A DNA stretch of 64,000 bases from Escherichia coli (lineage in GTDB: Bacteria; Pseudomonadota; Gammaproteobacteria; Enterobacterales; Enterobacteriaceae): NCBI RefSeq assembly GCF_003790525.1, contig NZ_CP033635.1; one strand, written 5' to 3'. The notes beneath the pieces were generated by a model that had not been told where the DNA came from, made no database searches, and worked only from the letters and a program-made list of their open reading frames with translations. The translations under genes and the position numbers were made by a program. Position 1 is the stretch's first letter, and the number at the start of each line of letters is the position of its first letter. This document shows, one piece after another, positions 44,723 through 52,765 of the stretch.

Positions 44723-45946
44723 TCATAAACACCATTTAAAACCATTATCCTGAACATCATACAACAATATATTTTTACTAAAGCATGAATTGTATATTTC
44801 TATTAATTCAGGAAAATTATCAGGATTCACCTTTAAATTCACCTGAATGTTACGCCTAATTTCACCCAGCAGTTTTTCATGCGTGAATTTTATTATTTCT
44901 TTATCATAATCTATAAATTCACACATGTTTTTTATGAATTCAAACCCTTTTCCTGTATACAGTTTGATGAATGCCACAAGAGCAAACATTTCAAGATGCA
45001 GCCATAATGCCACGTGAGTTTTTCGCAAAGTATAAAAAATTGAATTCACCTCTTTTTTACTTATTGCTCTTTTGTACTGTGAGTGTGCCAGATTCAGTAG
45101 TGGCAATTCTCTCTCGATAAATGAAAGTGAAAAAGGCGGGTAAATTGATGTCGGAAATATTTTAGGTCTTATGATATTTTCTATTTCCACCATAAATCTA
45201 TCCATAGAAAGAAAATCATTTTCTTTTTTTATTCTGGTATAGAGACCGCCTTTATTTCTTACTGCGACTTTTTTTCGTGCTACCCCCCCCAACACTTCCT
45301 CTAATTGTTTATTTATCTTCGTATCATTAAATACAACCATTCTTCTTATCATCCTGGGAAGGATGATAATATCAGAGCTTGAATCACTTGAACGGTAATT
45401 ATTATTGATCCATGCAACTTCAAGTTGAAGTATCGGAACATTAAATTCTCTGGGGTTAATAACTCTCTGATATTGTTTTTTGTATGCGTTTTTATTAAGA
45501 TATTCTCTGCTGTAGAGAAACTTATAGCAATATAATCTGACAATATCCTTTATGTAAGATTTAAATGAGTCACCTGTAACAGATATATTTTTTCTGCTCA
45601 GTAACTCCTGTGTATTGAGCCATTCCCGTGACCGGAGTACTCCCTTATGAAGACTTTTTCTTACTTGCATTGAACTGCGCAATTGATGTAATATTTTTGC
45701 GTCCTCAACAATTCTCTTTCCCGTTTGATTTCTTGCAGCATCTATTACTCTGTCAAATATCTCCCGGTCCAGACTTTTGTCATATTTACTGATTATACGA
45801 CAAATATTCCTGACCCGACGGTTCTCTTTATTTCGTTTCCATAACTGATAATGATCATCACATAACCTCAGGGCATTTGCCTCATCAAATTCTGAAACAG
45901 GATTGCTGCATTTTTTATTCCGACAGATACCTTTGTTTTTAGCCAT
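44723..45946 (-). CDS. hypothetical protein (407 aa), AT-rich orphan with Cys-rich N-terminus
   Basis: Long uninterrupted ORF in strongly AT-rich DNA; N-terminal CRNKKCSNP...CDDHY suggests a metal-binding motif; no family recognised. Confidence 0.6.
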   Translation of the reverse strand: MAKNKGICRNKKCSNPVSEFDEANALRLCDDHYQLWKRNKENRRVRNICRIISKYDKSLDREIFDRVIDAARNQTGKRIVEDAKILHQLRSSMQVRKSLHKGVLRSREWLNTQELLSRKNISVTGDSFKSYIKDIVRLYCYKFLYSREYLNKNAYKKQYQRVINPREFNVPILQLEVAWINNNYRSSDSSSDIIILPRMIRRMVVFNDTKINKQLEEVLGGVARKKVAVRNKGGLYTRIKKENDFLSMDRFMVEIENIIRPKIFPTSIYPPFSLSFIERELPLLNLAHSQYKRAISKKEVNSIFYTLRKTHVALWLHLEMFALVAFIKLYTGKGFEFIKNMCEFIDYDKEIIKFTHEKLLGEIRRNIQVNLKVNPDNFPELIEIYNSCFSKNILLYDVQDNGFKWCL

Positions 45947-46046: not shown

Positions 46047-46931
46047 ATGTCATTCAGCCATTCTTCCCTTTCCGCACACGTAAAATCACATCTGACCTTT
46101 CTTCCTGAAGAAATACGCCAGAAAATCCTTGAATATCTTCACAGCGTCATTCAGTACGAACCCGTGATTGGCATTATGGGTAAATCCGGTGCCGGAAAAA
46201 GCAGCCTGTGCAATGCCATTTTTCAGTCCCGTGTCTGCGCCACGCATCCACTGAACGGCTGCACCCGTCAGGCTCATCGTCTTACCTTTCAGCCTGGTGA
46301 ACGCAGAATGACGCTCGTCGATCTGCCCGGCACTGGCGAAACACCACAGCATGATCAGGAATACCGGGCACTTTACCGTCAGTTACTGCCCGAACTGGAT
46401 CTGATTATCTGGATCCTGCGTGCTGATGAACGTGCGTATGCTGCCGACATCGCCATGCATCAGTTTTTACTGAATGAAGGTGCCGATCCCTCGCGTTTTC
46501 TGTTTGTTCTCAGCCATGCTGATCGCATCCACCCGGCTGAAGAATGGAACAGCCAGAGCAACACGCCATCCCGTCAGCAGGAACTCTCACTGGCAACAGT
46601 AACAGCCCGGGTGGCAACCCTGTTCCCTTCATCATTTCCGGTACTCCCCATAGCTGCCCCTGCAGGCTGGAATCTTCCGGCATTTGTGTCACTGATGATC
46701 CACGCCCTGCCACCACAGGCAACCAGCACGGTTTATTCGCATATCCGGAATGAAAAGCGCACTGCGCAGGATCAGCAACACGCACAGCAGGCTTTTGGTG
46801 ACGCCATCGGCCAGAGCTTTGACGCGGCCATTGCCCGGTTCAGCTTTCCGGCCTGGATGCTGCAGCTTCTGCGTAAAGCCCGTGATCGCATTATCCGCCT
46901 GCTGGTCACACTGTGGGATCGCCTGTTCTGA
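46047..46931 (+). CDS. YfjP/YeeP/YkfA-family GTPase (CP4-type island protein)
   Basis: 294-aa ORF with P-loop GKSGAGKSS and DLPG switch motif. Confidence 0.8.
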   Translation: MSFSHSSLSAHVKSHLTFLPEEIRQKILEYLHSVIQYEPVIGIMGKSGAGKSSLCNAIFQSRVCATHPLNGCTRQAHRLTFQPGERRMTLVDLPGTGETPQHDQEYRALYRQLLPELDLIIWILRADERAYAADIAMHQFLLNEGADPSRFLFVLSHADRIHPAEEWNSQSNTPSRQQELSLATVTARVATLFPSSFPVLPIAAPAGWNLPAFVSLMIHALPPQATSTVYSHIRNEKRTAQDQQHAQQAFGDAIGQSFDAAIARFSFPAWMLQLLRKARDRIIRLLVTLWDRLF

Positions 46932-47116
46932 ATTTCCCCGCTTTTTGACCGGCACAGACGATGACCAGGGAACGCATTTCCGGCGGCTTTACCACAATGC
47001 TGAAGGGCTTTTGGTAAACCTCATTCATTTCATCCATCAGGCAGCGTCTTCTCCGGGAGATGCGGCTTTTTCATTGATTACGTCAGTCAGTCTTAACCAC
47101 TGATAAGGAGCAAAGT

Positions 47117-47935
47117 ATGCGATTAGCCAGTCGTTTTGGTTATGCGAACCAGATACGCCGTGACCGTCCGCTGACACATGAAGAGCTGATGCACCATGTG
47201 CCCGGGATTTTCGGGGAGGATAAGCACACCTCCCGGAGCCGGAACTATACATACATCCCCACCATCACCGTGCTGGAAAGCCTGCAACGGGAAGGCTTTC
47301 AGCCGTTCTTTGCCTGCCAGACCCGCGTGCGTGACCCGGGACGCCGGGGATACACAAAGCACATGCTGCGTCTGCGCCGTGACGGGGAGATAAACGGACA
47401 GCATGTCCCTGAAATCATCCTGCTCAACTCCCATGACGGCACCTCCAGCTACCAGATGCTGCCGGGTTACTTCCGGTTCGTGTGTCAGAACGGATGTGTC
47501 TGTGGTCAGTCTCTCGGAGAGGTGCGTGTCCCGCACCGGGGAGACGTGGTGGACAGGGTCATTGAAGGGGCTTACGAGGTGGTGGGCGTGTTTGACCGGA
47601 TAGAGGAAAAGCGTGATGCCATGCAGTCACTGATTTTACCACCACCGGCTCGTCAGGCGCTGGCACAGGCCGCCCTGACTTACCGTTATGGTGACGAACA
47701 TCAGCCCGTCACCACCGCCGACATTCTGACACCACGACGCCGGGAGGATTACGGTCAGGACCTGTGGAGTGCTTATCAGACCATCCAGGAGAATATGCTG
47801 AAAGGCGGGATTTCCGGTCGCAGTGCAAAAGGAAAACGTATCCATACCCGGGCCATTCACAGCATTGATACCGATATAAAACTCAACCGCGCATTGTGGG
47901 TGATGGCAGAAACGCTGCTGGAGAGCATGCGCTGA
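47117..47935 (+). CDS. DUF932-family protein (YfjQ-like)
   Basis: 272-aa ORF in the canonical position after the GTPase. Confidence 0.65.
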   Translation: MRLASRFGYANQIRRDRPLTHEELMHHVPGIFGEDKHTSRSRNYTYIPTITVLESLQREGFQPFFACQTRVRDPGRRGYTKHMLRLRRDGEINGQHVPEIILLNSHDGTSSYQMLPGYFRFVCQNGCVCGQSLGEVRVPHRGDVVDRVIEGAYEVVGVFDRIEEKRDAMQSLILPPPARQALAQAALTYRYGDEHQPVTTADILTPRRREDYGQDLWSAYQTIQENMLKGGISGRSAKGKRIHTRAIHSIDTDIKLNRALWVMAETLLESMR

Positions 47936-48016
47936 TGCCGTTTCCCTGAGTGAGGGAATCATTCAGCTTTCGTTCCTGAAAAACACACATTTATTTGTTA
48001 TTTAAGGAGTTATCTC

Positions 48017-48457
48017 ATGAAAACCGTTTCTCAGAATACCCCCACAATTTATTCAGCTACAACACCAGAGAATAATCCGCCTCAGTTGGTTGCCAGCCTC
48101 GTCCCTGATGAACAGCGCATCAGCTTCTGGCCGCAGCATTTTGGCCTCATTCCACAGTGGGTGACCCTGGAGCCCCGTGTCTTCGGCTGGATGGACCGTC
48201 TGTGCGAAGACTACTGCGGTGGTATCTGGAATCTGTACACCCTGAACAACGGCGGCGCATTTATGGCCCCCGAACCGGATGATGATGATGACGAAACATG
48301 GGTACTGTTCAATGCCATGAACGGTAACCGCGCTGAAATGAGCCCGGAAGCCGCCGGCATTGCTGCCTGTCTGATGACGTACAGTCATCATGCCTGTCGT
48401 ACGGAGTGTTATGCCATGACGGTTCATTATTACCGTCTGCGGGATTACGCCCTGTAG
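48017..48457 (+). CDS. antirestriction protein, KlcA/ArdB family (YfjX/YeeR-like)
   Basis: 146-aa ORF with acidic stretch (PEPDDDDDE) and pattern typical of CP4-island antirestriction proteins. Confidence 0.7.
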   Translation: MKTVSQNTPTIYSATTPENNPPQLVASLVPDEQRISFWPQHFGLIPQWVTLEPRVFGWMDRLCEDYCGGIWNLYTLNNGGAFMAPEPDDDDDETWVLFNAMNGNRAEMSPEAAGIAACLMTYSHHACRTECYAMTVHYYRLRDYAL

Positions 48458-48511
48458 CATCCGGAATGCAGCGCCATTATGCGCATCATTGACTGAAAGG
48501 GGGCCGGAACA

Positions 48512-48988
48512 ATGCAACAGATTTCCTTTCTGCCCGGAGAAATGACAACCAGAGAGCGCAGCCTCATTCAGCGGGCCCTGAAAGCCCTGGACCGCCATCT
48601 TCATGAACCCGGCGTGGCCTTCACCTCCACCCGTGCGGCACGGGAATGGCTGATTCTGAACATGGCGGGACTGGAGCGGGAAGAGTTCCGGGTGCTGTAC
48701 CTGAACAACCAGAATCAGCTGATTGCCGGTGAAACCCTCTTCACCGGCACCATCAACCGCACGGAAGTCCATCCCCGGGAGGTGGTTAAACGCGCCCTGT
48801 ACCACAATGCCGCTGCCGTGGTGCTGGCACACAATCATCCGTCCGGTGAAGTCACACCCGGTAAGGCAGACCGGCTTATCACTGAACGTCTGGTACAGGC
48901 ACTGGCCCTGGTGGATATCCGGGTGCCGGACCATCTGATAATCGGTGGCAGCCGGGTGTTCTCCTTTGCCGAACACGGTCTGCTTTAA
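48512..48988 (+). CDS. RadC-like JAB/MPN domain protein (YfjY/YeeS/YkfG-like)
   Basis: 158-aa ORF with JAMM-like HNHPSGEVTPGKAD motif. Confidence 0.8.
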   Translation: MQQISFLPGEMTTRERSLIQRALKALDRHLHEPGVAFTSTRAAREWLILNMAGLEREEFRVLYLNNQNQLIAGETLFTGTINRTEVHPREVVKRALYHNAAAVVLAHNHPSGEVTPGKADRLITERLVQALALVDIRVPDHLIIGGSRVFSFAEHGLL

Positions 48989-49077
48989 TCCGTCACCGTC
49001 ACAACCACCTTCATATTGTCACTTCAGTTTCTCTTTCTCAGCTGTTTCTCACTTTCACATTCAGGAGGACTGTTCTC

Positions 49078-49299
49078 ATGAAAATCGTCACCCGTGGTGA
49101 AGCCATGCGCGTTCACCGTCAGTATCCGTCATCCCGTCTTTTTCCGTTCTGCACCGGTAAGTACCGCTGGCACGGCGGCACTGAGGCGTATACCGGTCGT
49201 GAAGTGCAGGATATCCCCGGCGTACTGGCCGTGTTTGCCGAACGCCGCAAGGACAGTTTTGGCCCGTATGTCCGGCTGATGAGCGTCACCCTGAACTGA
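49078..49299 (+). CDS. DUF987-family small protein (YeeT/YpjJ-like)
   Basis: 73-aa ORF, MKIVTRGEAMRVHRQYP...; canonical position upstream of the antitoxin. Confidence 0.65.
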   Translation: MKIVTRGEAMRVHRQYPSSRLFPFCTGKYRWHGGTEAYTGREVQDIPGVLAVFAERRKDSFGPYVRLMSVTLN

Positions 49300-49309
49300 G
49301 TCAGTGGAG

Positions 49310-49960
49310 ATGCTGATGAGCAGCATTATCACCACCACCGTGTATACGCTGAATGAACTTTCCGCCACAGCACGGGAAAAAGCCCGCGGCTGGTACCGTC
49401 AGCATCATGCTGACAGCCGCTGGTATGAAAACGTGTATGAGGACTTCAGGGCGGTCTGTGAGATTGTCGGGATTGTCCTCCGCCAGCGTGTTATCCGGCT
49501 CAGCAGCGGCAGGTTTATGGAAGAGCCGTGCATCTGGTTCAGCGGATTCTGCAGCCAGGGGGACGGAGCCTGTTTTGAAGGGCGCTGGCACTGGCAGCCG
49601 GCAACAGCCAGGCGAGTCCGGGAATATGCCCCGCAGGACCGTGAGCTTCATCGTATCACGGATGCCCTGCAGGCGGTGCAGAAGCATAACTTCCGGCAGT
49701 TACAGGCTGAAATCCGTCACCGGGGACGCTACTGCCATCCGTACAGCATGGATATCACCGTCACCCGGGACAGCCCGACCGGACAGGCAATGACAGCCGG
49801 CGCGGAAACCGTTGTCTGTGACGCCCTGCGGGACCTGGCCTTCTGGTTATACAGTCAACTGGAAAACGAGTACGACTGGCTGACCTCAGATGACGCCGTG
49901 GATGAGGCGCTTCTCATCAACGGATACACCTTCACCGAAGCCGGTCTGCGCGCCGGCTGA
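49310..49960 (+). CDS. hypothetical protein (~216 aa)
   Basis: ORF in a GC-rich segment between DUF987 and the antitoxin; start ambiguous (GTG 49304, ATG 49310 or 49316); no family recognised. Confidence 0.5.
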   Translation: MLMSSIITTTVYTLNELSATAREKARGWYRQHHADSRWYENVYEDFRAVCEIVGIVLRQRVIRLSSGRFMEEPCIWFSGFCSQGDGACFEGRWHWQPATARRVREYAPQDRELHRITDALQAVQKHNFRQLQAEIRHRGRYCHPYSMDITVTRDSPTGQAMTAGAETVVCDALRDLAFWLYSQLENEYDWLTSDDAVDEALLINGYTFTEAGLRAG

Positions 49961-50010
49961 CCCGTCATTGTTAAAACCATTCTTAACCGATTATCAGTGA
50001 GGACTTTATC

Positions 50011-50388
50011 ATGTCAGACACACTCACCGGGACAACGCATCCCGACGACAACAGCGACCGCCCCTGGTGGGGGCTGCCCTGCACCGTGACGCCCTGTTTC
50101 GGTGCCCGTCTGGTGCAGGAGGGTAACCGCCTGCATTACCTTGCAGACCGCGCCGGCATCAGAGGCCGGTTCAGCGACGCAGATGCGTACCACCCGGACC
50201 AGGCCTTTCCGCTGCTGATGAAACAGCTGGAACTCATGCTCACCAGTGGTGAACTCAGTCCCCGCCATCAGCATACCGTCACACTGTATGCGAAAGGGCT
50301 GACCTGCGAAGCCGACACCCTCGGCAGTTGTGGTTACGTGTATATCGCCATTTATCCGACACCGGCAACACCCGGAACCACCGCATAA
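50011..50388 (+). CDS. type IV antitoxin, CbeA/YeeU/YfjZ family
   Basis: 125-aa ORF; ...[20 protein letters not shown]...[19 protein letters not shown] matches the YeeU family. Confidence 0.85.
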
Positions 50389-50434
50389 CCCCGGACAGCA
50401 CTTCTTTATCACCACCTGTTACAGAGTACTTAAG

Positions 50435-50809
50435 ATGAAAACATTCCCCGACACACATGTACGGGCAACATCGCGCTGCCCGTCTCCGGTTGAAATCTGG
50501 CAGACACTGCTCACCCGGTTGCTGGACCAGCACTACGGCCTCACGCTGAATGACACACCGTTCGCCGATGAACGTGTGATTGAACAGCATATTGAGGCAG
50601 GTATTTCACTGTGTGATGCGGTGAACTTTCTCGTGGAAAAATACGCACTGGTGCGTACCGACCAGCCGGGATTCAGTGCCTGCACCCGCTCTCAGTTAAT
50701 CAACAGCATTGATATCCTCCGGGCCCGCCGGGCAACCGGCCTGATGACCCGCAGCCACTACCGAATGGTGAGCAACATCACCCTGGGTAAACACTGTGAG
50801 GTGAAATGA
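50435..50809 (+). CDS. type IV toxin, CbtA/YeeV/YpjF family (cytoskeleton-binding)
   Basis: Trimmed to [48 protein letters not shown]..., near-identical in pattern to CbtA. Confidence 0.85.
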
Positions 50810-51297
50810 TGAAACTGTCCCTGACGCTGGAAGCAGACAGCGTTAACGTCCGGGCACTGAACATGGGGCGCATTGTCGCTGACGTCGATGGTGTTAATCT
50901 CGCTGAACTGATTAACGTGGTCTGCGATAACGGCTGTTCCCTTCGTGTTGTTGATGAATCTGACCGGACCTCAGCAGACTGCATGCCACCATTTACTGCC
51001 CTTACCGGCATACGCTGCAGTACCGCACATATCACGGAACAGGACAATGCCTGGCTGTACTCGCTGTCGCATCAGACGAATGACAACGGCGAATCAGAAT
51101 GGATTCATTTTACAGGCAGCGGATATCTGTTACGTACTGATGCGTGGTCGTACCCGGCTCTGCGGCTTAAACGCCTGGGGCTGTCAAAAACCTTCCGCCG
51201 TCTGGTTGTCACACTTATCCGGCGTTATGGCGTCAGTCTCATTCATCTGGATGCCGGCGCTGAATGTCTGCCGGGTTTACCCACTTTCGACTGGTAA
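50806..51297 (+). CDS. hypothetical protein downstream of toxin (YeeW-position protein)
   Basis: 163-aa ORF, ATGA overlap with the toxin stop. Confidence 0.5.
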
Positions 51298-51316
51298 CCG
51301 GGACAAAAGACACCGT

Positions 51317-51514
51317 ATGAAATCATTAACCACAGAAACGGCACCGGATATTCTGATTGCGTGGCTGCAGGACAATATCGACTGCGGCTCCGGCATTATC
51401 TTCGACAACGATGAGGATAAAACGGATTCGGCAGCACTGCTGCCCTGTATCGAACAGGCCAGAGCGGATATCCGCACCCTGCGCCACCTGCAGCTTCAGC
51501 ACCAGAACCGGTGA
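51317..51514 (+). CDS. small hypothetical protein (possibly DUF957-type)
   Basis: 65-aa reading frame from internal ATG of ORF 50945..51514 (MKSLTTETAPDILIAWLQDNIDCG...). Confidence 0.4.
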   Translation: MKSLTTETAPDILIAWLQDNIDCGSGIIFDNDEDKTDSAALLPCIEQARADIRTLRHLQLQHQNR

Positions 51515-51609
51515 GTCTCACTCATCATCTCACTCACCACGATTCATTCCCCTGACGCCAGTCCGAATACGGCTGGCGTTTTCATTTATAAACCACAAGG
51601 AAAAATGTA

Positions 51610-52458
51610 ATGTCTGATATCACAATCCCTTATCCGGAAGCGGTCAACGGACATACGGACGTTATCTGCTCCACAGATATCCGGCACGTTGTGACGGTAC
51701 GGAATGAAGCACTGCAACAAACCGAAAGGGTTATCCGGCAACTGGCAGAAATCTCAGCAATGACAGAAAGCATAGGCGGTAAAACGGCGCGGGACTGGGC
51801 CGTGAAACAGGATTTTCGCTGTGGCTGCTGGCTGATGGAAAAACCGGAAACCGCAATGAAAGCCATCACCCGGAACCTTGACCGTGAAATCTGGCGTGAC
51901 CTGATGCAACGCTCCGGGATGCTGAGTCTGATGGATGCACAGGCGCGTGATGAATGGTACCGTTCACAGGAGGACGATAATTTCCCGGAAATCAGCGAAG
52001 CGAATATCCTGAGCACGTCTGAACAACTGCACCGTAACAGGGATGAAATGGCTGAACGGGGCGTCATCAACCTCTTCAGGGGACTGAGCCGGACGCAAAA
52101 CAGCGGGTCACCCTGTAAATTCGGCAGCAAGATTATCCTCAACAACCTGGTGAAATGGGACTGGTGGGGATTTGGTCTGAACCATGGCCCGCAGGCCGGG
52201 CGGCTTGCCGACCTGGAAAGAATGTTGTATCTGTTCAGTGGTAAACCCATACCCGATTACAGGGACAATATCCTCATTCGTCTGGATGAGCACATCCGGT
52301 CCGTTCAGGGTGAAGCGTGTTATGAAGATGAGATGTTCAGCATCAGATACTTCAGGAAAGGCTCTGCGCATATCACGTTTAAACACCCGGAACTGGTGGA
52401 GAAGCTGAATGCTGTTCTGGCGAAACATTATTCGGTAAAGTTCCATTCTTCTGTATAA
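51610..52458 (+). CDS. hypothetical protein (possibly DUF4942-type), last island gene
   Basis: 282-aa ORF; same strand as the downstream glnP. Confidence 0.55.
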   Translation: MSDITIPYPEAVNGHTDVICSTDIRHVVTVRNEALQQTERVIRQLAEISAMTESIGGKTARDWAVKQDFRCGCWLMEKPETAMKAITRNLDREIWRDLMQRSGMLSLMDAQARDEWYRSQEDDNFPEISEANILSTSEQLHRNRDEMAERGVINLFRGLSRTQNSGSPCKFGSKIILNNLVKWDWWGFGLNHGPQAGRLADLERMLYLFSGKPIPDYRDNILIRLDEHIRSVQGEACYEDEMFSIRYFRKGSAHITFKHPELVEKLNAVLAKHYSVKFHSSV

Positions 52459-52583
52459 ACTTACAGATCACGGGTATTGTGTCTCGTCCTGAACAGGGCC
52501 GACAGGTATACTGCATTCGCTGAGCCATTACAGATAATGCCTCAACTGAGTTCAATCTACCTCCATGTACAACAACAATACGA

Positions 52584-52605
52584 TGGGGGCTACATTGGGG
52601 GCTAT
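52584..52605 (+). repeat. tandem TGGGGGCTAC / TGGGGGCTAT repeats (candidate integrase arm-type sites), right end
   Basis: Same motifs and 12-bp spacing as at 26019..26040, same orientation. Confidence 0.55.
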
Positions 52606-52664
52606 ACTTTCAAGTAAAACTGATATAACCAAGATTAAACAATAAGATAGAGAATTTTCACCAT

Positions 52665-52678
52665 TCCCCTCTGGGGAG
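52665..52678. repeat. right copy of island-flanking direct repeat (att core) tcccctctggggag
   Basis: Identical to 25877..25890. Confidence 0.75.
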
Positions 52679-52765
52679 AGGATTAGGGTGAGGGGCGCAA
52701 ACCCGCTCCGGGGCCATTAATTACCCTGAATTTGATTATTTACACCACGGTAACAGGAACAACAT

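Follow-up and report, generated by a model that had tools for sequence, protein, structure and literature searches.

A stretch of 64,000 nucleotides (nt) of Escherichia coli DNA (NZ_CP033635.1; hereafter the window, to whose full length all positions refer) was found to hold a co-oriented and tightly packed string of genes at 46047-52458, with the start of glnP (52766) lying beyond it. All genes of this module are on the plus strand and they include an antirestriction gene, a RadC-like gene and a DUF987 gene, followed by an open reading frame (ORF) of 214 amino acids (aa) and by the genes of the antitoxin CbeA and the toxin CbtA, which form a type IV toxin-antitoxin (TA) pair (Table 1). The subject of this study is the 214-aa ORF, for which a role on mobile elements is tentatively proposed below.

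Three candidate start codons are available to the ORF (GTG 49304, ATG 49310, and ATG 49316), all leading to the same end at 49960. The preliminary description of the locus, which had been made from the sequence before any database search, had reported an extra gene of ~216 aa between DUF987 and cbeA; the gene is present there, but its start had been taken two codons too early, at 49310. We place the start at 49316, which is the start used in RefSeq for the identical protein WP_000094922.1 (214 aa) and which has a GGAG motif 6 nt on its 5' side. The same length of 214 aa and the N-terminus MS.II.TTVY are found in homologs from other phyla.

Homologs of the ORF were searched for among 1.84 billion cluster representatives (clusters at 50% identity, E-value cut-off: 1e-3), and 3,330 clusters were recovered, nearly all of them with proteins of ~210 aa (200-220) that matched end to end. 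The ratio of nonsynonymous to synonymous substitution rates (dN/dS, Nei-Gojobori) was 0.20-0.40 among the E. coli copies and 0.11-0.22 in comparisons with Salmonella and Alphaproteobacteria. The AlphaFold2 model, which was built from a 94-sequence alignment, consisted of a single compact alpha/beta domain with a mean predicted local distance difference test score (pLDDT) of 96.1 and a predicted template modelling score (pTM) of 0.88. The number of homologs, the dN/dS values and the pLDDT together dispose of the artefactual frame that the preliminary description had allowed for, and the ORF is regarded as a genuine gene that is kept under purifying selection. The residues E14, Q81, D83, R172, W177, and Y179 as well as the motif FSGFxSQGDGA are conserved out to the phage homologs, and H141 hardly varies among the 94 homologs from outside phages. 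Structure comparison with the PDB gave no significant match to the ORF, and the sequence-profile search of the PDB returned noise only.

The prevalence of the ORF was determined over 5,426 complete E. coli genomes, in which it was counted at a DNA coverage of at least 80%. It was present at full length in 1,942 genomes (36%), and the TA pair was present in 4,827. The window protein matches phrog_5162 over its residues 3-210 (profile positions 3-195 of 201), and a locus that is 96% identical carries the annotation DUF8835. Its identity is 86-93% to the E. coli members named in RefSeq and ~60% to the members from Salmonella and Alphaproteobacteria, all of which are 214 aa long. Besides this length it shares with the DUF8835 family the motifs FSGFxSQGDGA, HxGxYxH, LRDLAxWLYxQL, and NEYxFTExG, and there was no feature by which it could be distinguished from the family. 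The ORF is hence classified as a typical member of the catalogued, uncharacterised family DUF8835/phrog_5162, and the locus as one that is not new in kind.

Neither the ORF nor its 94 homologs were matched by any model in the local copies of Pfam-A, NCBIfam, and PADLOC, of which the Pfam copy is presumably older than the DUF8835 model, and no mention of DUF8835 was found in the literature searched. No curated model in the Pfam and NCBIfam (20.0) copies searched corresponds to the word “antitoxin” in the RefSeq product name, nor was experimental support found for it; the name may mislead TA surveys. A family in the supplement of PMC11541004 that shares the generic name “stability system” could not be mapped to the ORF family.

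The TA pair itself is classified as an intact, standard CbtA/CbeA module of the CP4-44 subtype. The full-length Pfam matches bear out the preliminary description, in which both genes had been called intact and in canonical order after the antirestriction, RadC, and DUF987 genes. The gene cbeA lies directly upstream of cbtA on the same strand, separated from it by a gap of 46 nt, and the two window proteins are 88% (CbeA) and 85% (CbtA) identical to those of K-12. The K-12 toxin homologs act by inhibition of FtsZ/MreB, and their antitoxins oppose this effect without binding to the toxin (PMC5624674, PMC5371832); all three K-12 pairs are working two-gene TA systems (PMC5371832).

These three K-12 modules, i.e., CP4-44 (CbtA/CbeA), CP4-57 (YpjF/YfjZ), and CP4-6 (YkfI/YafW), have TA proteins of the same families as the window (PF06755/PF06154) and share its flanks, with antirestriction, RadC, and DUF987 genes upstream and DUF5983 downstream. 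The 214-aa gene, which in the window separates DUF987 from cbeA, is missing from all three, as had been stated earlier for CP4-44 and CP4-57. The gap of 73 nt between yeeT and cbeA in CP4-44 consists of the ATG and 8 codons of the ORF (ATGAGCAGAATTATCGCCACTACCG, ~27 nt) joined to the ~50-nt spacer that precedes cbeA, and contains no equivalent of window positions 49341-49975; the gaps in CP4-57 and CP4-6 are short and without a trace of the ORF. Modules of another class (strains 6409 and 2013C-4361) have a gap of 162 nt, which holds the last 107 nt of the ORF (window 49854-49960); these end in the same stop codon and are placed immediately after the DUF987 stop. This remnant is the sole trace of the ORF in ~1,760 genomes, in which the match covers 17% of its length. 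Between two such remnants the ratio of nonsynonymous to synonymous differences (pN/pS) was 1.35, compared with 0.15-0.32 for the same 32 codons in intact genes, and the 107-nt stretch is therefore considered a neutrally decaying scar.

The gene had previously been described as inserted and as GC-rich. Its guanine-cytosine (GC) content is indeed high (0.594) but not distinctive, since DUF987 (0.586), RadC (0.589), and cbeA (0.611) are similar, and a recent insertion was rejected because the base composition of the ORF is no different from that of its neighbours. Given the 5' scar in CP4-44, the 3' scar in the other strains and the neighbour-like composition, the parsimonious reading is that the ORF is ancestral and was deleted at least twice independently. 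The original CP4-type order in enterobacterial islands is reconstructed as antirestriction - RadC - DUF987 - ORF - CbeA - CbtA - DUF5983, in a region that we regard as prone to deletion and recombination. That the textbook K-12 CbtA/CbeA modules are deletion derivatives of this longer ancestral cassette is a small but useful correction.

Some minor features of the deleted and rearranged alleles were also recorded. In front of the 107-nt remnant, a newly formed ATG that shares bases with the DUF987 stop (TGATG) opens an unannotated mini-ORF of 37 codons (MFRHPENEYDWL..., L003:2494-2607 and L004:2494-2607); its pN/pS of ~1.35 suggests that it is not maintained. Among the alleles P0001 (283 aa) and P0036 (285 aa) one carries a tandem duplication of the first ~65 residues of the ORF, and in the other the N-terminus of the antirestriction protein is fused to ORF residues ~35-214, which implies a deletion of RadC and DUF987.

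The dependence of the ORF on CbtA/CbeA was examined within and beyond E. coli. In E. coli, modules without the ORF are common, and identity to the TA proteins of the window is 85-90% whether a module carries the ORF (L097, L098) or lacks it (K-12, 6409, 2013C-4361), so that the presence or absence of the ORF does not track the TA subtype. Beyond E. coli, a scan of one genome per species yielded at least 578 genomes with a relative of the ORF, of which the best 80 loci were examined for neighbours within 6 kb, and at least 487 viral contigs were found to encode relatives, of which 80 loci were examined for neighbours. CbeA or CbtA was nearby in 1 of the 80 species-genome loci (Salmonella diarizonae only) and in 2 of the 80 viral loci (both enterobacterial). 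We conclude from this distribution that the ORF is not specific to the CbtA/CbeA module, and since the K-12 pairs work without it, it probably plays no required part in the toxicity of CbtA or its neutralisation by CbeA. The suggestion of a module-specific accessory gene or regulator is accordingly not supported. The gene is common in these modules and already annotated in RefSeq, an outcome that the preliminary description had itself named as speaking against its reading. It is an ordinary gene and no special feature of the TA module, and the finding as first described matters little.

More can be learned from the company of the ORF outside Enterobacteria. Leading regions of conjugative elements are rich in anti-restriction genes, methylases, TA genes, and single-stranded DNA-binding proteins (SSBs), and they also hold a large number of families that are uncharacterised (PMC11541004). 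Homologs that are ~60% identical to the ORF occur in Tistrella, Pleomorphomonas, Roseibium, Methylosinus, and others, and the best 80 species-genome loci show a conserved order on one strand, namely ArdC - DUF2958 - ParB-like - a 185-aa gene - a gene here called U1 - ORF - a methylase/Sno-type helicase of ~1,450 aa - DUF7146/Toprim. At the 80 species-genome loci the neighbours within 6 kb were the methylase/Sno-helicase (70), ParB-like (50), Toprim/DUF7146 (45), ArdC (28), RadC (16), DUF932 (7), and SSB (1), and at 74 loci there was at least one of ArdC, methylase/helicase, ParB-like, SSB, RadC, and DUF932. On mobile elements the ORF thus has anti-restriction and establishment genes for neighbours, and its E. 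coli copy lies downstream of PF03230 and RadC genes.

On plasmids the ORF was found 111 times, 41 of these plasmids being conjugative. One plasmid of Pseudosulfitobacter (Rhodobacterales) encodes H-NS, SSB, DUF932, two RadC proteins, DUF6878, DUF6915, U1, and the ORF, with an Xre/RES pair, i.e., a TA pair of a different kind, directly downstream. In Tistrella the ORF is located ~2 kb upstream of, and in the same orientation as, a nikA-relaxase. Relatives with 33-46% identity were further detected in 59 phage genomes (by tblastn) and in the viral contigs mentioned above, and belong to lytic as well as temperate phages; in jumbo Caulobacter phages the relative lies inside the terminal repeat. 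The phage copies sit in accessory or early-type regions.

The gene U1 encodes 138-145 aa (e.g., L006:7592-8008, L089:8589-9008, and L039:5571-6008), and in 66 of 71 alphaproteobacterial loci there is an 8-nt overlap between its stop and the start of the ORF. The two genes are usually translationally coupled, and U1 and the ORF may form a conserved two-gene unit. No Pfam family match was obtained for U1. A first hit of CbeA by a hidden Markov model (HMM) of U1 (E = 1e-11) turned out to be an artefact of a Salmonella CbeA in the U1 alignment; once that sequence was removed there was no hit, and the hhalign probability was 0.2%. A relationship of U1 with DUF987 was likewise rejected (BLAST E-values of 0.02-0.9 over 31 aa, HMM E-value 2.2).

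Because the ORF travels with anti-restriction and establishment genes, we tentatively favour, at somewhat less than an even chance, a function as an accessory protein of mobile elements that works alone in establishment or anti-defence and is dispensable for TA function, the genomic company being the strongest evidence. The ORF product would be a soluble alpha/beta protein that acts alone and is made together with the other entry genes of the element; it would bind or modify a host factor or the incoming DNA, and the newly arrived element would thereby be helped to establish itself or to evade host defence. In integrative and conjugative elements, plasmids and islands the ORF shares its company and orientation with the leading-region genes for anti-restriction and establishment (ArdB/KlcA, ArdC, DarB-like methylase-helicases, ParB-like, and SSB), but it has no similarity to these proteins in sequence or fold, and searches against characterised anti-restriction and anti-defence families (ArdA, ArdB/KlcA, ArdC, Ocr, Dar, Acr, and others) gave no homology. 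A bolder proposal is that the DUF8835 proteins, which are shared by integrative and conjugative elements, conjugative plasmids, CP4-type islands and lytic phages, represent a novel type of factor that serves establishment or anti-defence on its own and is made on DNA entry to neutralise a widespread host barrier. This is doubtful; if it were true, the TA-embedded copies in E. coli and Salmonella and the fusion of the ORF with CbeA described below would be accessible handles on the family. Being found on so many mobile elements, with strong conservation and a confidently predicted fold that has no structural match, DUF8835 is in any case a reasonable candidate for anti-defence and establishment screens.

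Several points weigh against an establishment or anti-defence function. Guilt by association is weak evidence for function, and no neighbour was conserved across the 80 viral loci. To our knowledge the CP4-type islands of E. coli have no relaxase, so that “leading region” is there an analogy. The family is moderately acidic (median isoelectric point 4.8, median net charge -16.5), whereas the window protein is only mildly so (net charge -5), and a DNA-mimic mechanism is not indicated. Finally, the ORF lies inside the TA operon (in Salmonella even between antitoxin and toxin), is frequently fused in frame to cbeA and has another TA pair directly downstream of it on one plasmid, so that some functional tie to the TA genes may exist.

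The last of these points bear on two rival explanations that bring the ORF closer to TA systems. One of them, which we consider unlikely, counts the ORF as a third member or as a regulator within the CbtA/CbeA module, where it would for example modulate the activity or stability of CbeA or the expression of the operon. The ORF is part of the same co-oriented string, and a terminator and promoter scan of DUF987-ORF-cbeA gave nothing above chance, with no terminator-like site in the spacer at 49961-50010; the K-12 modules that lack the ORF are functional TA pairs (PMC5371832), and the independence from the TA subtype and the ~60%-identical homologs without CbtA/CbeA (79 of 80 genome loci, 78 of 80 viral ones) speak against a component of this module. 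The Salmonella order is DUF987 - CbeA - CbeA - ORF - CbtA, in which the ORF and the second cbeA share 4 nt. There is also a fusion allele of E. coli, in which a change of the stop codon (TGA to TTA) and a deletion of 37 nt of the spacer bring the ORF in frame with cbeA (343 aa; L094:3001-4032 and L095:890-1921), and the junction was found in 455 of the 5,426 complete genomes; however, the PGAP annotation treats the ORF part as a pseudogene and cbeA as a normal gene, which keeps a GTG start and a Shine-Dalgarno sequence of its own. The AlphaFold2 model of the natural 343-aa fusion (pTM 0.56) had a disordered low-confidence linker, a low-confidence CbeA part and no confident docking, a test that is weakened by the shallow CbeA alignment. 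A search for the ORF as a diverged CbeA or as a relative of another module protein was negative by hmmsearch and hhalign (probability for CbeA 0.2%). These TA-linked features are weak hints, which we read as the outcome of reshuffling and deletions in a cassette of small genes that are independent of one another, and the idea of a TA accessory stays alive at low probability.

According to the other explanation, which we hold to be distinctly unlikely, the RefSeq name is literally right and the ORF is the antitoxin of an unrecognised pair, for instance with U1, or an orphan antitoxin against TA-type defence toxins of the host. The 8-nt overlap of U1 and the ORF is a TA-like two-gene layout, yet the ORF occurs without U1 in Enterobacteria and in lytic phages. 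Orphan antitoxins have been reported to be enriched in leading regions (PMC11541004) and TA pairs lie directly downstream of the ORF in E. coli and on the plasmid mentioned above, but neither hhalign against CbeA nor the Pfam and NCBIfam searches connected the ORF with any antitoxin family, its name corresponds to no curated model in the NCBIfam copy, and its single compact fold of 214 aa is unlike that of typical small antitoxins, which combine a DNA-binding domain with a disordered tail. We consider it very improbable that the E. coli ORF is a remnant, decaying or without any current function, which persists only through linkage. Such a view could point to the deletions of the ORF (at least two), to the common occurrence of alleles with frameshifts, truncations, internal duplications or fusions, and to the nonsense mutation in the neighbouring antirestriction gene of the window; nevertheless, the dN/dS of the intact E. 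coli copies is far from the value of ~1.35 for a true remnant, more than a third of the complete genomes have it at full length, and the identity between Gamma- and Alphaproteobacteria is still ~60%.

Table 1. Genes and spacer of the module in the window, in the order of their positions.
Feature	Position	Strand	Evidence and remarks
YeeP-like GTPase family gene	46047..46931	+	PF01926 MMR_HSR1, E = 1.4e-14; RefSeq “GTPase family protein”; first gene of the island arm
DUF932 gene	47117..47935	+	PF06067, E = 1e-51
Antirestriction gene, ArdB/KlcA-type	48017..48457	+	PF03230, E = 1.3e-28, profile positions 1-79 of 92; nonsense-truncated
RadC-like JAB gene (YeeS/YfjY family)	48512..48988	+	PF04002, E = 8e-44
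DUF987 gene (YeeT family)	49078..49299	+	PF06174, E = 6e-37, full length
214-aa ORF	49316..49960	+	Identical to WP_000094922.1; phrog_5162, E = 3e-34
Spacer, 50 nt, with cbeA Shine-Dalgarno sequence (GAGGA)	49961..50010	+	37 nt of the spacer missing in the ORF::cbeA fusion allele
CbeA (YeeU-family) type IV antitoxin, 125 aa	50011..50388	+	PF06154, E = 6e-54, profile positions 1-100 of 101
CbtA (YeeV-family) toxin, 124 aa	50435..50809	+	PF06755, E = 1.7e-61, profile positions 1-112 of 112
DUF5983 (YeeW-like) gene	50806..51297	+	PF25638 and PF19419; 4-nt overlap with the cbtA stop
DUF957 gene	51317..51514	+	RefSeq annotation of the CM2 locus, 99.5% identical
DUF4942 gene, last of the island arm	51610..52458	+	PF13708, E = 4e-59

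Further observations were made on the neighbouring genes. In Salmonella enterica the two CbeA-family genes are in tandem (L092:5293-7084 and L026:5260-7086), and their products share only 39% and 69% identity with the CbeA of the window. The strongest terminator-like hairpin of the module is located at 51554-51580 in the gap between DUF957 and DUF4942 (10-bp stem with 6 GC pairs and a T-rich tail), which suggests that DUF4942 is a separate transcription unit. When compared with strain CM2, whose locus is otherwise 99.5% identical, the antirestriction gene of the window has a C to T change at 48455 (CAG to TAG, codon 48455-48457), by which the protein is shortened from 159 to 146 aa and loses 13 aa including the end of the Pfam domain. 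The genes yfjX/yfjY of K-12 CP4-57 are now named lfgA/lfgB (L101:2420-3369), and LfgB, a RadC-like JAB protein, is a homolog of the product of the gene at 48512-48988. Reportedly, LfgB acts as a protease and cuts the antitoxin MqsA (PMC10846083), which places an activity related to antitoxins in one of the neighbouring genes of the cassette.

Just upstream of the module an ORF of 407 aa with low GC content (0.29-0.37) is found on the minus strand at 44723-45946, which gave no match in PADLOC and which is intact in the window and annotated as frameshifted in CM2. At the other end, the 99.5%-identical module adjoins glnP both in the window and in strain 23CRST013, and yjgR/idnR in CM2 (window 52459-52765 vs. 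L001:12460-12713); from these different junctions it follows that the island arm occupies different chromosomal sites in different strains.

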